From an uncultured Candidatus Saccharibacteria bacterium (lineage in GTDB: Bacteria; Patescibacteriota; Saccharimonadia; Saccharimonadales; JAGQNK01): a stretch of 64,000 bases of DNA. Positions within the stretch are counted from its first letter, which is position 1, and each line of letters begins with the position of its first letter. This document shows, one piece after another, positions 2,573 to 49,494 of this stretch. Made by a program: the position numbers and the translations under genes. The notes below the pieces were generated by a model. The model was not told the origin of the DNA. It saw only the letters and a list, made by a program, of their open reading frames with translations, and ran no database searches. Location: the NCBI GenBank assembly GCA_964636355.1, contig CAZWRG010000006.1:660-64659 (forward strand), in the 5' to 3' direction.

Positions 2573-2923
2573 ATGCTATATATGTTAAATATGAGCATAC
2601 AAAAAGCTATTAGAGATATTGATGAAGGTGTTCGTGCTCGATTTTTAGACGGTAATCCCGTGGAGCTGCATCTTCGAGGACATCATCCTGATTTTGAAGT
2701 CGAAGAAACCCGCTACGGGCTTAGTTTTTCGATACTTGAAAGAAGTTCGATTAATCTTGTAGGTAGTTACTCTGTCAGAAATATCGTTACTATCGACGAT
2801 CCTGTGGTTATTTATGATGGCGCCCATTACTACAGTAATGACATTTTCGGCTCTTTCGTCAGTACTAAGACACTAAATCGTATTTCTTCAGAGCTTGGTC
2901 TTCCTTATACTTTTTCTCGATAA
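2573..2923 (+). CDS. Hypothetical protein (116 aa), the only plus-strand gene in the module array
   Basis: Longest ORF in this interval. Copy B could supply a -35 TTGGCT / -10 TATAGC promoter 60 nt upstream. No family recognised. Confidence 0.4.
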   Translation: MLYMLNMSIQKAIRDIDEGVRARFLDGNPVELHLRGHHPDFEVEETRYGLSFSILERSSINLVGSYSVRNIVTIDDPVVIYDGAHYYSNDIFGSFVSTKTLNRISSELGLPYTFSR

Positions 2924-3043
2924 TTATGGATCAATGGCATTATAAGCGTTGTCAATTGGCTTGCTCGGTCAAGACTTTCTGAAATTTTAAGCAACCTAAT
3001 GCAAGCCACCGATAATCTCATTAGCTGTCTTTATAGTCTTTAT

Positions 3044-6056: not shown

Positions 6057-6131
6057 TGGCTCGGGAGGCCGGACTCGAACCGGCAACCTCGAAGTTAACA
6101 GCTTCTTGCTCCACCATTGAGCTACTCCCGA
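6057..6131 (-). tRNA. tRNA-Asn (anticodon GTT), CCA encoded
   Basis: Minus-sense TCGGGAGTAGCTCAATGGTGGAGCAAGAAGCTGTTAACTTCGAGGTTGCCGGTTCGAGTCCGGCCTCCCGAGCCA. Cloverleaf folds by hand. Anticodon loop is CTGTTAA. U1-A72 as in E. coli tRNA-Asn. Confidence 0.9.
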
Positions 6132-6308
6132 ATATCTATTGTAAAAATATAAATGTACTTTACGGTAGTAGCCATGGTGTCGCAAGATTGCTCCACTCTT
6201 ACCTATTAAAAGCTACTCCCGAATATATAATCTAAAATTTGAATGTGCTTGAGAGTAGTCATGGTTGAGCAAGATTGCTCCACTCTTACCTATTAAAAGC
6301 TACTCCGA
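6132..6308 (-). repeat. Two tandem ~88-bp units, each an AT-rich promoter-like spacer plus a tRNA-Asn 5' part copy
   Basis: GCAAGATTGCTCCACTCTTACCTATTAAAAGCTACTCC(C)GA occurs at 6183-6222 and 6269-6308. It keeps the acceptor 5' strand and D-stem (TTGCTCCAC) of tRNA-Asn, with an enlarged D-loop. Confidence 0.7.
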
Positions 6309-6317
6309 ATATAATTG

Positions 6318-6352
6318 AGTTAGAAAGTTAGAAAGTTAGAAAGTTAGAAAGT
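6318..6352. repeat. Microsatellite (AGTTAGAA) x4
   Basis: Direct reading: agttagaaagttagaaagttagaaagttagaaagt. Confidence 0.9.
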
Positions 6353-31116: not shown

Positions 31117-31506
31117 GTGAATATAAATCAAAAAACAGCTCAAGAGCAAATAAGCGAGATTATTGATAACAGTCCTGGCTGGAAGAAAGATGTTTTATCG
31201 CGAATTCGTGAGGTTATTTTAACGGCCGATCCTAGAATCATTGAAGAAGTAAAATGGAAAACTGCCTCCAGGCCAGAAGGCCTGCCAGTTTGGTCGCACA
31301 ATGGAATAATTTGTATCGCCGAAACCTGGAAAGATAACATAAAACTGGTTTTCTTTAAGGGTGCTAAAATGTCTGACTCCAAAAAGTTGTTTAATGCGCG
31401 GTTAAAAAGTGCCACTGATCGGGCGATTGAGTTTCATGAAGGTGACAATCTAGACGAACAAGGACTAAAGGAATTGGTCAAACAAGCTATAGAGCTAAAT
31501 AACTAA
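31117..31506 (+). CDS. DUF1801 (YdhG-like) domain protein
   Basis: 129 aa. VKWKTA...WSHNGIICIAETWKDNIKLVFFKG pattern. GTG start after AAGGGGG. Confidence 0.55.
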   Translation: MNINQKTAQEQISEIIDNSPGWKKDVLSRIREVILTADPRIIEEVKWKTASRPEGLPVWSHNGIICIAETWKDNIKLVFFKGAKMSDSKKLFNARLKSATDRAIEFHEGDNLDEQGLKELVKQAIELNN

Positions 31507-31508
31507 AG

Positions 31509-31532
31509 TAAAACCCCGTCACGTTGACAGGG
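31509..31532 (-). terminator. Terminator after tRNA-Gln
   Basis: CCCTGTCA pairs with TGACGGGG (8 bp, one G-U) in minus sense, followed by TTTTAC. Confidence 0.55.
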
Positions 31533-31540
31533 TCTCACTT

Positions 31541-31615
31541 TGGCTAGGGCGGAGGGATTCGAACCCCCGAATGCCAGGACCAAAACCTGGTGCCTTACCA
31601 CTTGGCCACGCCCTA
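31541..31615 (-). tRNA. tRNA-Gln (anticodon TTG), CCA encoded
   Basis: Minus-sense TAGGGCGTGGCCAAGTGGTAAGGCACCAGGTTTTGGTCCTGGCATTCGGGGGTTCGAATCCCTCCGCCCTAGCCA. Cloverleaf folds by hand. Anticodon loop is TTTTGGT. Confidence 0.9.
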
Positions 31616-31852
31616 ATATTCTAGAAAGCTTTATAATGTACAAGAACGTCAGTAAATGTTTTGGCCCATGGCCAGGACTATAACAATTTGGTTGCCTTAC
31701 GCAACGGCCTGGTGCCTTACCACTTGGCGACGCCCTAATAATCAAGAAAGCTTTATAATGTACAAGAACGTCGATAGGATTTTGGTCCAGGACTACAACA
31801 ATTTGGTTGCCTTACGCAACGGCCTGGTGCCTTACCACTTGGCGACGCCCTA
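31616..31852 (-). repeat. Two tandem units (122 and 115 bp), each a promoter-like spacer plus a truncated tRNA-Gln copy
   Basis: Copies at 31672-31737 and 31787-31852 keep the acceptor 5' strand, D-arm and anticodon stem (28 of 29 nt identical). A 31-nt insert (CCGTTGCGTAAGGCAACCAAATTGTTRTAGT) replaces the anticodon loop. T-arm and 3' acceptor are absent. Confidence 0.75.
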
Positions 31853-31969
31853 ATAAACAGATAGATTTTACCTTAGATATGCCCACTAGACAACTCCCTG
31901 ACCAAACACACACTATTTAGATCAACCAAAATTGGTAATAAGCATAACTAAGTTATAATTAATTTAATA

Positions 31970-32845
31970 ATGCGTGTTATTCATCCCAGCCAATTTGAGA
32001 CAATAAAAAAGCCCAAAAAGCGCTTTAAAGTCAAAAATTTATTGATTGTGGGGGCGGCTGTCTTAATTTTGTTGGGGCTTTGGCAGATAATCCCCTTAGC
32101 TCAAAATGCTCGTGACAATAATGTTTCTGAAAACTCCAATAACCAGCCACAAAATTCAGCTGCAAATCAGCCCTCGGCTTCTAAGACTTTAAGAGTTTTT
32201 CAAGCTGAGCAGTTCAAGCACTTGGCGTTTAGCACTAAATATCCTAACACCGTCATGCTGGAGCGGCCGCCATCAATTACTGGCGTAGAGGCAGCTGATG
32301 AAATTATTCAGGAGTTGGCTGAATCGCGTGGCTATAAATTGTCCAATGTGCCGGTTTCGTCGATCACTAAAATTGATGAACCGCGGCTGGACAGTGATGA
32401 TTTGCTTCAGCCGTTGGCTGCCCGGTCTTGGTCAAAATTAAAATCAGCTGCCGAAAAAGACAATGTGCCACTCGCTCTGCTGTCGGCTTATCGTTCCATA
32501 AATTATCAACGCACGTTGTTTGTTGGCCGTTTGACGGCTCGCGGCGCCACCATCAGTAGTATTGTAAACCGGCGTTCTGACAACCATATTCTTGATACAT
32601 TGAAAATCACGGCTCCGCCCGGCTACTCCAGGCATCATAATGGCTACACGATTGATCTTTGGTGCGAGGATGGCTCTGGGCAGTTTGTCAGAAGCTCTTG
32701 TTATAAGTGGCTAAGTAATGATAATTACAAAATTGCCAAACAAAACAACTGGATTCCAAGCTATCCAGATGGCGTGGAGTTGCAGGGCCCGGAGCCGGAG
32801 CCTTGGGAGTATGTTTGGATGGATAGCAGTTTTTTGTATAACTAA
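31970..32845 (+). CDS. M15B (VanY-like) D-alanyl-D-alanine carboxypeptidase, membrane anchored
   Basis: SAYRSINYQ, GYSRHHNGYTIDL and the C-terminal EPWEY motif are typical of the VanY/M15 family. Confidence 0.75.
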   Translation: MRVIHPSQFETIKKPKKRFKVKNLLIVGAAVLILLGLWQIIPLAQNARDNNVSENSNNQPQNSAANQPSASKTLRVFQAEQFKHLAFSTKYPNTVMLERPPSITGVEAADEIIQELAESRGYKLSNVPVSSITKIDEPRLDSDDLLQPLAARSWSKLKSAAEKDNVPLALLSAYRSINYQRTLFVGRLTARGATISSIVNRRSDNHILDTLKITAPPGYSRHHNGYTIDLWCEDGSGQFVRSSCYKWLSNDNYKIAKQNNWIPSYPDGVELQGPEPEPWEYVWMDSSFLYN

Positions 32846-49290: not shown

Positions 49291-49494
49291 TTATTGCCCT
49301 TCTTAAGAAATTTGAATTTCAATATCGACCTTATTGAAATTTTATCAATAAAAATTGACCTCCGTTACCAAAGGTCAATATGTGCTCACAAAACGTAAAA
49401 TGTATTGATCTAGCACCTCGGCGACACAATTAAGGATTACTCCAGTCGCTGTCTTTGGTAACAGATGGGAGTTTAGCAAACATTACGGCTAATG
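49291..49494 (-). promoter_or_regulatory. rplJ leader with terminator/antiterminator architecture (L10-leader-like)
   Basis: Terminator TTGACCT/AGGTCAA (49355-49378) followed by TTTTT on the minus strand. Its loop GTTACCAAA (49364-49372) is complementary to TTTGGTAAC (49454-49462) upstream. Confidence 0.5.

Follow-up and report, generated by a model that had tools for sequence, protein, structure and literature searches.

Tandem tRNA-Gln 5'-half modules in the leader of a Saccharibacteria tRNA-Gln gene, a candidate family of structured leader RNAs

The stretch of DNA analysed here, called the window, spans 64,000 nucleotides (nt) of contig CAZWRG010000006.1 (positions 660 to 64,659, forward strand; assembly GCA_964636355.1) of an uncultured Candidatus Saccharibacteria bacterium; unless a locus is named, all positions are those of the window. 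Its reverse strand carries an intact tRNA-Gln(UUG) gene that is preceded by two modules, proximal and distal, arranged head-to-tail and each opening with a partial copy of this same tRNA (Table 1). This tandem had been reported in an initial annotation, and it is real: ARAGORN and the Rfam tRNA model both separate the complete gene from the copies, Tandem Repeats Finder returned the segment 31586-31856 with a period of 115, 2.3 copies and 90% matches, and a repeat search gave the same families.

Regarding their architecture, both copies begin with TAGGGCGTCGCCAAGTGGTAAGGCACCAGG, which corresponds to tRNA positions 1-31 with G9 to C as the sole change. Loop bases 32-36 are substituted by CCGTTGCGTAAGGCAACCAAATTGTT(G/A)TA, after which the copies resume with GT (loop 37-38) and CCTGG, the 3' strand of the anticodon stem. 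The insert measures 29-31 nt in the window and consists of CC, a hairpin (HP1) and an A/T-rich linker. Next to CCTGG, on its 3' side, stands a box complementary to the anticodon loop of the real tRNA (ACCAAAA or GCCAAAAC), followed by GACGTTC, which is able to pair with the module's own GGGCGTC; the module closes with an A/T-rich tail that holds TATAAA. Reading of the sequence thus agrees with the initial annotation as to the near-identical 5' part, the hairpin inserted in the loop, the retained 3' anticodon strand, and the absence of the T-arm and of the 3' acceptor strand from both copies. Neither ARAGORN nor the Rfam tRNA model calls them, even at E<=10, and only 31541-31615 is recognised as a tRNA; each module is a former tRNA-Gln copy no longer able to be a tRNA. 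In the minimum free energy (MFE) folds, the 5' end of each module pairs with a strand of its tail, but this closing helix was rejected as a general trait of the Gln modules, being significant in the window copies and not in other genomes.

Between the distal and proximal copies there are a 7-nt indel and ~12 substitutions, located almost entirely in the 3' halves. The 26-nt core of the insert occurs in two places only within the 64 kb window, with 0.00 expected by chance; as to the comparison with related genomes that the initial annotation had proposed as a check, their modules have homologous inserts. A dispersed repeat, such as a miniature inverted-repeat transposable element or a repetitive extragenic palindrome, was considered and discarded, with the insert confined to the two modules and HP1-like hairpins numbering 5 in the window against 5.8 expected.

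Table 1. Features of the tRNA-Gln and tRNA-Asn loci of the window, and positions of the ~90-nt motif in other loci (locus numbering)
Feature	Position	Strand	Remarks
tRNA-Gln(UUG), intact, CCA encoded	31541..31615	-	ARAGORN; Rfam tRNA 63.6 bits
Terminator-like hairpin and T-run, 3' of tRNA-Gln	31505..31541	-	
Proximal module, 122 nt (tRNA 1-31, insert, 3' anticodon strand, HP2, A/T-rich tail)	31616..31737	-	R1 49.9 bits over 31656-31737
Distal module, 115 nt, architecture as proximal	31738..31852	-	R1 47.1 bits over 31777-31852
tRNA-like 5' part, proximal (acceptor 5' strand, D-arm, 5' anticodon-stem strand)	31707..31737	-	30/31 identical to tRNA
tRNA-like 5' part, distal	31822..31852	-	30/31 identical to tRNA
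HP1, GTTGC-GTAAG-GCAAC, proximal	31691..31705	-	conserved pairs G-UUG with CAA-C
HP1, distal	31806..31820	-	
HP2, TGGCC-ATG-GGCCA, and AAAAC, proximal	31658..31674	-	10 bp complementary to anticodon loop/stem of the real tRNA
CCTGGACCAAAA, distal (3' anticodon strand and anticodon-loop complement)	31780..31791	-	12-nt arm against 31574-31585 in tRNA, 92% complementary
Closing-helix strand TGACGTTC, proximal	31644..31651	-	pairs with GGGCGTCG at module 5' end; MFE fold; duplex test 39/500 shuffles
Closing-helix strand CGACGTTC, distal	31766..31773	-	MFE fold; duplex test 5/500 shuffles
Native promoter TTGTCT-17-TAAAAT, then conserved CTATCTGTT	31865..31893	-	best sigma-70 match; consensus scan
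-10-like TATAAA, 14 nt 5' of tRNA-Gln	31630..31635	-	no full promoter called
-10-like TATAAA, 14 nt 5' of proximal module	31752..31757	-	
tRNA-Asn	6057-6131	-	
tRNA-Asn modules, tandem pair	6132-6222 and 6223-6308	-	
~90-nt motif, L079	1647-1737, 1341-1431		
~90-nt motif, L049	46-135		
~90-nt motif, L081	2634-2723		
~90-nt motif, L071	2710-2799		
~90-nt motif, L076	1693-1782		
~90-nt motif, L022	787-875		
~90-nt motif, L048	57-146		
~90-nt motif, L041	2027-2115		
~90-nt motif, L060	2917-3006		
~90-nt motif, L063	1264-1355		
~90-nt motif, L009	726-813		

As for its neighbours, the tRNA-Gln gene is accompanied by a VanY-type carboxypeptidase (31970-32845, forward strand), a DUF1801 protein (31117-31506, forward strand) and a ClpB-like ATPase. 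Homologues of the VanY protein are nearly all from Candidatus Saccharibacteria/Saccharimonadales, and 80 species-representative loci were fetched around them; in most of these, tRNA-Gln(UUG) is divergent from VanY and upstream of it, the same arrangement as in the window. The loci were searched for modules with each genome's own tRNA 5' half and the D-arm motif, and metagenome contigs by a pattern scan. A Gln module is present upstream of tRNA-Gln in six of the 80 loci, namely L008 (two copies), L018, L022, L029, L054 and L066; others were found in the metagenome contigs L082 and L083, and at the contig end of L001 (VanY 97% identical). The metagenome scan yielded these two loci only, hence the small sample available for covariation. 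The L001 assembly, an independent one, stops 26 nt into the distal copy, just before the module and tRNA sequences diverge, the point at which short-read assembly of a repeat would be expected to break off. At least nine of the fetched contigs from metagenome-assembled genomes (MAGs) terminate at or inside tRNA-Gln or the module (L028, L034, L038, L045, L075, L003, L025, L037 and L001); this suggests that the locus carries repeated sequence in more genomes than the assemblies display and, with short-read contigs breaking at partial tRNA copies, that the modules are under-counted.

The insert is homologous across the Gln modules, with the order CC(N), a hairpin GTTG/GTTT...CAAC/AAAC, (C)AAAT, a 12-14-nt A-rich linker and (T)GGT joined to the 3' anticodon strand, and its length ranges over the family from 29 to 45 nt. 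The stems of HP1 vary and still pair: GTTGC/GCAAC, GTTGCGG/CCGCAAC, GTTTTG/CAAAAC, GTTGCGA/TCGCAAC, GTTGTC/GACAAC and, in two genomes, GTTGTG/CACAAC, while L082 has a nested extension. A covariance model of the module (R1) scored the 11 modules at 37.9-88.6 bits and all true tRNAs at <=33 bits over the 555 kb scanned. The suspicion of the initial annotation that the copies represent more than a single local event is therefore borne out, by tRNA-Gln copies in eight further assemblies besides L001 and by tRNA-Asn copies in three related genomes (see below); judged from these comparisons, the modules of the window are an inherited element rather than a one-off rearrangement.

The position of the modules relative to the promoter is equally consistent among genomes. 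Module-free genomes (examples are L002, L009, L010, L013, L015, L024, L033, L035, L052 and L094) have the motif TAnAAT-N3-ATCTGTT(A) 3-25 nt 5' of tRNA-Gln, in many cases together with a good -35, and in module-bearing genomes it is found at equal spacing 5' of the distal module. Where the motif directly precedes tRNA-Gln or the distal module, this shared spacing is 11-12 nt. The native promoter of the window (31893-31865) is orthologous to the one directly 5' of tRNA-Gln in module-free genomes, and the 5' end of the distal module falls where the 5' end of the tRNA is in those genomes. Since the native promoter abuts the distal module here and the tRNA there, the modules lie inside the tRNA leader, and the topology is that of sequence inserted after tRNA position 31, with a new copy of positions 1-31 on its 3' side. 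The window has no predicted terminator separating the modules from tRNA-Gln, and from this, along with their place between native promoter and tRNA, the modules are probably transcribed. Upstream of the modules, sigma-70 matches reach 10 of 12 positions in L008 and L029. As a separate observation, G-TAnAAT-N3-ATCTGTT(A), at 31853-31870 in the window and with ATCTGTT between the -10 and the tRNA start, is strongly conserved across very divergent Saccharibacteria, being located 5' of tRNA-Gln or of the distal module in most loci.

The copies had initially been described as promoter-bearing, and this did not hold: a -10-like TATAAA is all they contain, and the consensus scan called no full promoter; L066 is the only locus with a sigma-70 consensus match inside the module. 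Across genomes, the tail has a -10-like box (TAAAAT, TAAACT or TATAAA) 10-23 nt 5' of the next tRNA start, which, from its sequence, may or may not serve as an additional promoter. Amplification of promoters, one of the processes put forward at first, is accordingly a weak explanation, as the native promoter is unduplicated and the -10-like box is the only conserved promoter element of the tails. Likewise, the duplicated spacer holds in part: TTGTACATTATAAAGCTTTCT precedes both the real tRNA and the proximal copy, but the distal copy is preceded by a different sequence that carries the promoter. On the strand antisense to the modules of L008 (2004-2024 and 2132-2152, forward strand), an intrinsic terminator is scored at the tail hairpin CGTCTGTGCTGGACG with GTTTTTGG after it; five such sites were counted against 0.7 expected. 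An antisense terminator made by a hairpin and the U-run given by the module's A-run was rejected as a module trait, L008 being the only case.

Structural alignment with R1 covers 11 modules from nine genomes and is fitted to the model. In it, HP1 has seven pairs, four of them with compensatory changes, and 95.7% of the cells are paired; a second hairpin (HP2), formed in most of the modules and with tRNA bases 35-40 (UGGUAC) and a downstream GUACCA as its strands, has six pairs, two of them compensatory, with 88.7% paired. None of 500 shuffles reached the covariation score, and sliding the partners lowers pairing to 28-45%. The modules have what marks a conserved structured RNA, homologues in several genomes and helices with compensatory changes, within the bounds of nine genomes, a model-fitted alignment and a near-palindromic HP1. 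No decayed HP1 is present among the aligned modules. Counts of G.U against A.C, tried and set aside as a way of identifying the folded strand, gave 8 versus 4. The invariant pairs of HP1 are G-UUG with CAA-C, and the UUG is located at or beside anticodon positions 34-36, so that what was once the anticodon seems to pair in cis with a Gln codon; this pairing may be a mere reflection of an origin by inverted duplication. Complementarity to the real anticodon arm extends over 10-16 nt in nine of ten modules, as read by eye from the sequences, and L066 lacks the box.

Conservation along the module is uneven, as expected for a constrained element. Over the nine genomes, the mean pairwise identity is 80% in the tRNA-like part, 76% in the junction with the 5' strand of HP1 and 76% in its 3' strand with AAAU, while it is 19% in the HP1 loop, 39% in the linker and 30% in the tail; the VanY proteins of the module-bearing genomes are merely 38-50% identical. 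The acceptor strand of the module is that of its own genome's tRNA: UAGGGCG in the window and L018, UGGGGCG in L008, L029 and L022, UGGGGAG in L066, and UGGGAUG in L082; the module of L083 also begins with UGGGAUG, and its tRNA lies off the contig. In L082 the module and the tRNA have unrelated 5' flanks but are identical over 31 of 31 nt. Copy number is one or two per locus. Unequal crossing-over between the 31-nt direct repeats would account for both the homogenisation and the variation in copy number. On a neighbour-joining tree of VanY, the module-bearing genomes are scattered and make up ~10% of the loci, and the closest relatives whose sequence covers the region (L092/L093 and L094, with VanY 55-60% identical) lack the module; such a distribution implies a history with many losses or some mobility.

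Other partial copies of tRNA-Gln exist in these genomes. In one type (type D; L079, L049, L076 and L048), the copy 5' of the gene extends as far as position ~52 and carries a multi-helix insert of ~90 nt in the T-loop, after which come an inverted T-arm, a TATAAT box and, finally, intact tRNA-Gln; in L071 the insert is located in the D-loop instead. A covariance model of this insert (R2) gave 12 strong matches in 603 kb (Table 1), and the motif, which is not in the window, is multi-copy in Saccharibacteria and always within the T-loop or D-loop of partial tRNA-Gln-like copies. Seven of the 12 matches are inside 3' partial copies with the order GAAUGCGCAUUC-GGG-motif-GUCGAAUCCCUCC-AUCCCA-GCCA. 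In four cases an intact tRNA-Gln precedes the partial copy (L022, L009 and L041, at ~70-85 nt, and the second copy of L079), whereas L060, L063 and L081 have the 3' partial copy and no tRNA-Gln on the locus. The last 20 nt of the 3' partial copy equal the 3' end of the genome's own tRNA in L079, L022 and L041. A G.U pair occurs in all four seed sequences of the ~90-nt motif (alignment A8), which argues for constraint at the RNA level; the motif and the type-D unit had no match in Rfam, nor in phage records by blastn. In all families, a neighbouring tRNA segment, in inverted form, caps the truncated end of the tRNA copy, and this suggests fold-back or template-switch duplication at tRNA stem-loops as a common origin.

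Two further conserved leader types were noted 5' of tRNA-Gln, neither with an Rfam match. One, ~110 nt upstream in L016, L020, L023, L026, L027, L038 and L039, has TTTGAGAGGAG and then a long hairpin, whose loop, GAGCAAACTTGTTTTG, is similar to the central hairpin that the ~90-nt motif has in L076. The other, ~95 nt upstream in L005, L036 and L051, reads GGGAAAAGAGCA ... GAGAAAAACCGTAGGTTTGTCTCA. The tRNA-Gln leader appears to be a favoured site for small structured elements in this phylum. Finally, L015 has a tRNA-Gln-like sequence at ~2846-2959 (forward strand) with the anticodon loop UAUUGCU, a poorly paired acceptor stem and the strand opposite to that of the normal tRNA-Gln; not called by ARAGORN, it is perhaps a pseudo-tRNA, or else a tRNA of foreign origin.

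A parallel with tRNA-Asn had been drawn initially, and it stands as far as the tandem is concerned, for two modules precede tRNA-Asn in the window, but the break point, which is in the D-loop for Asn, and the insert differ from those of Gln. The Asn module consists of tRNA positions 1-12, a D-loop insert of 14-16 nt that measures 15 nt in the window, TGGAGCAATCTTGC (with TGGAGCA, TCTTGC and GACACC), and the complement of positions ~3-12. A single Asn module is present in each of the relatives with SmpB 82-86% identical (L084, L085/L086 and L087/L088). The closing helix, by the duplex shuffle test, is general to the Asn modules: at most four of 500 shuffles were better in four of five units, and the helix shifts along with the acceptor sequence (GGAGUAGCU/AGCUACUCC, CCGGGUAGCC/GGUUACCCG and GGGUAGC/GCUACCC). 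A 49,032-nt relative contig (L087, which equals L092) has the Asn module and no Gln module. Being distinct, separately conserved families, one of which is alone on that contig, the modules are recurrent, yet they do not reflect a single genome-wide event, and the initial proposal of one recent genome-wide process was dropped. Side observations at the Asn locus are a near-consensus promoter TTGCCA-17-TATAAT (6424-6396, reverse strand), just downstream of smpB and 5' of the Asn modules, and a perfect 8-nt microsatellite CTTTCTAA of 4.4 copies (6318-6352, reverse strand) between promoter and modules; the related Asn loci have similar short repeats there, CTTTCTAAC and TTTTAGACTTT.

The modules were compared with known systems. 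At gathering thresholds, Rfam identified in the window and region the true tRNAs and a ribosomal protein L10 leader only, with no match for the modules at E<=10; that leader (RF00557, 59.7 bits; 49340-49476, reverse strand) is an ordinary bacterial cis-regulator and fits the bacterial ribosomal-protein operon in the window. The tRNA fragments of integrase-borne islands are normally the 3' part of the gene. Partial prokaryotic tRNA genes are a classical mark of integrated elements (PMC9897764; bioRxiv 10.1101/2020.12.28.424599), and the modules share with the fragments of islands and prophages a partial copy beside the intact gene, a break in a stem-loop, variable presence and copies that can be stacked (PMC9897764). 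Unlike those, the modules are the 5' part and lie ~85 nt from the intact gene rather than kilobases away, their loop is replaced and not shared, and the sequence in between shows conservation and structure even among distant genomes. Presence and absence at the same tRNA is polymorphic, as an attachment site would have it (~10% of loci; absent from L092 and L094), but there is neither an element in between nor a shared crossover: the distance from fragment to tRNA is 115-145 nt in 11 of 11 modules, with no open reading frame and with VanY/tRNA-Gln synteny intact, and the HP1 insert takes the place of loop bases 32-36 throughout the modules. Neither the 11 Gln modules nor the type-D and Asn units contain a recombinase or cargo, and an integrase-sized gap is missing from all loci. 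The junction pattern, sought as a phage attachment site (attP), had no match in 2.9 million viral contigs, and blastn returned none for the Gln module or the type-D unit in 50,697 phage records, a weak negative as Saccharibacteria phages are poorly sampled. An integrative element or phage attP was rejected on these results, and the 5'-half-targeting element suggested at first is disfavoured in the form of an integrase-borne island.

RNAs such as tRNA-Other and the bacterial, Y-RNA-like YrlA retain a near-complete cloverleaf or a T-arm/acceptor module. The modules differ from them in being 5' halves only, without a T-arm, and in standing in tandem in the leader of the cognate tRNA. An example of a pseudo-tRNA is tRNA-Other of B. 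cereus (PMC3399842). Likeness to this group is that the modules are tRNA-derived, do not decode, and may regulate. Escherichia coli 3'ETS-leuZ is a spacer-derived small RNA from a tRNA precursor and, similarly, a functional RNA could come from the precursor here by the normal processing enzymes; RNAs of that type, however, are not known to derive from tRNA or to involve a partial tRNA copy. Group I introns of bacterial tRNA genes also place extra structured sequence exactly at the anticodon loop, but the insert of 29-45 nt has no catalytic core and no Rfam match at E<=10, no T-arm or 3' acceptor follows it, and a separate intact gene exists. Split and permuted tRNA genes, known from Nanoarchaeum and Cyanidioschyzon, resemble the modules in having a free-standing 5'-half-like unit with a structured extension; a split tRNA was rejected because intact tRNA-Gln is adjacent wherever the contig reaches and no 3' half covering positions 32-76 was found, the 3' partial copies of other genomes spanning positions 44-76 only. 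The archaeal splicing endonuclease is not expected in bacteria. T-box leaders have in common a leader sequence complementary to the tRNA anticodon loop, but the modules have no Stem I, specifier loop, T-box sequence or Rfam match, and the gene downstream is a tRNA, not an aminoacyl-tRNA synthetase; a T-box-like specifier was rejected because CAA, the sole universally conserved candidate, is buried in the HP1 stem. A limited search of full-text literature found no description of such modules.

Considering all the above, we tentatively regard the modules as an undescribed conserved family of tRNA-Gln-derived structured leader RNAs, kept tRNA-like by unequal crossing-over, a reading to which we assign slightly less than an even chance. 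According to it, the ancestral promoter would transcribe one or two modules and the tRNA as a single precursor, and cleavage by RNase P at tRNA +1 would free the module, a small RNA with the D-arm, HP1 and HP2 as its structure and similar to a tRNA 5' half; the -10-like box of the tail may provide the tRNA with another start. Unequal recombination between the 31-nt direct repeats would leave one or two copies whose 5' halves track their own tRNA, and the origin would be a tandem duplication of the tRNA gene, followed by inverted (fold-back) duplications at its stem-loops and by loss of the T-arm. The module may act in cis, as a leader that influences how pre-tRNA-Gln folds or is processed, or in trans, as an RNA of tRNA-half type; both are candidate roles. 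The decoy or regulatory tRNA-like RNAs contemplated in the initial annotation remain, in this sense, the best class of explanation, although their function is unproven.

Several points weigh against this reading. That the module RNA is transcribed, processed and stable is a presumption. HP1 is an almost perfect Watson-Crick palindrome, and quasi-palindrome correction at the DNA level could mimic compensatory change; the structural alignment is model-fitted and the sample is of nine genomes; and the distal copy of the window is unable to form HP2, its loop being too short. Promoters internal to the modules are poor with respect to the consensus, L066 excepted. The 5' halves of L018, L022 and L054 have diverged by 3-4 nt from their own tRNAs, so that identity with the tRNA is not strictly selected, and the patchy distribution fits a dispensable or mobile element equally well.

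Some of these points suit a neutral relic, in which a tandem duplication of tRNA-Gln was followed by fold-back duplications and decay of the upstream copy, the hairpins being maintained by template-switch quasi-palindrome correction and the 5' half by unequal crossing-over. This is possible, if on the unlikely side: it would explain the inverted caps at the truncated ends (UUG/CAA of HP1, the anti-anticodon box of HP2, the closing helix of Asn and the anti-T-arm of type D), the patchy occurrence, the one or two copies, the absence from closer relatives and the drift of some 5' halves, and the tails, as read from their sequence, are weakly like tRNA trailers (CCA, A-rich, ...TAGAACGCA...). Decay, however, does not predict that the base of HP1 and its flanks be 76% conserved against 19-30% in loops and tails among genomes with such divergent VanY, nor that all the aligned copies of HP1 be intact. 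Saccharibacteria genomes are small and streamlined, and direct repeats 115-145 nt apart should readily delete unless retained. The scattered distribution and the tandem copies would be expected also from a miniature mobile element, or its scar, that inserts in the anticodon loop and restores the gene with its own promoter and 5' half, spreading either by site-specific recombination or by homologous recombination via conserved tRNA sequence after DNA uptake. Although the topology is indeed that of an anticodon-loop insertion ending in a new 5' half, with the native promoter staying with the displaced half, although the ~90-nt motif of type D is multi-copy in loops of tRNA-Gln copies, and although partial tRNAs are the classical trace of integration (PMC9897764; bioRxiv 10.1101/2020.12.28.424599), we hold this explanation to be improbable: the intergenic gap is the module alone, devoid of cargo or recombinase, the would-be crossover overlap in the loop is replaced, neither the viral contigs nor the phage records had a match, HP1-like hairpins show no dispersal over the window, and an acceptor strand that matches the tRNA of its own genome in every module is hard to square with transfer between species.

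A special case of the preferred reading, that of a structured leader RNA, is a folding switch in cis, in which, on long transcripts, the 5' half of the module would compete with that of the tRNA for the 3' acceptor strand, and the anti-anticodon box would mask the anticodon arm, thereby gating tRNA-Gln maturation. We consider such a switch distinctly improbable. MFE folds swap the acceptor pairing and pair the box with the anticodon arm in the window, L008, L029 and L054, with -81.7 kcal/mol for the joint fold of L008 versus -69.4 for separate folds, and analogous 'anti' segments accompany the wide anti-anticodon complementarity in the Asn and type-D units; but these are thermodynamic predictions, and any duplicated 5' half gives such pairing automatically. 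Moreover, the 'anti' box, which L066 does not have, would be tied up by HP2 and by folding during transcription, the folds of L022 and L018 show no swap, and no ligand or sensor is apparent. An assembly artefact, from a collapsed or mis-joined repeat, might be invoked since many MAG contigs break at or inside tRNA-Gln, making the locus hard to assemble; it is scarcely credible, as the window copies differ by an indel and ~12 substitutions and nine independent assemblies from different projects have the same architecture with lineage-specific sequence, which also speaks against the artefact considered in the initial annotation.

In conclusion, the Gln modules are apparently part of an undescribed set of conserved tRNA-derived modules around the tRNA genes of Saccharibacteria. 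It is doubtful, and for now speculative, that they form a new class of cis-acting tRNA leaders made of a decoy copy, an antisense copy and the real tRNA, which through alternative pairings, among them a 'super-tRNA' whose acceptor stem is closed by the 5' half of the module in place of the tRNA's own, would gate the amount of mature tRNA-Gln and tRNA-Asn produced from the ancestral promoter, or that they yield a trans-acting tRNA-5'-half RNA. The module repeats probably add to the contig breaks at tRNA-Gln, and can mislead tRNA annotation and island finders; the covariance models R1 and R2 offer a direct means of survey, and Saccharibacteria are now culturable and genetically manipulable. Partial prokaryotic tRNA genes are usually read as scars of mobile elements or as annotation noise, whereas here a cargo-less, 5'-sided and structurally conserved fragment sits in the leader of its own tRNA and recurs across a phylum-level group with tiny genomes. 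If transcribed, the modules would constitute a regulatory layer not found in the (limited) literature searched, that of genome-encoded tRNA-half-like RNAs or of self-referential tRNA-gene leaders.

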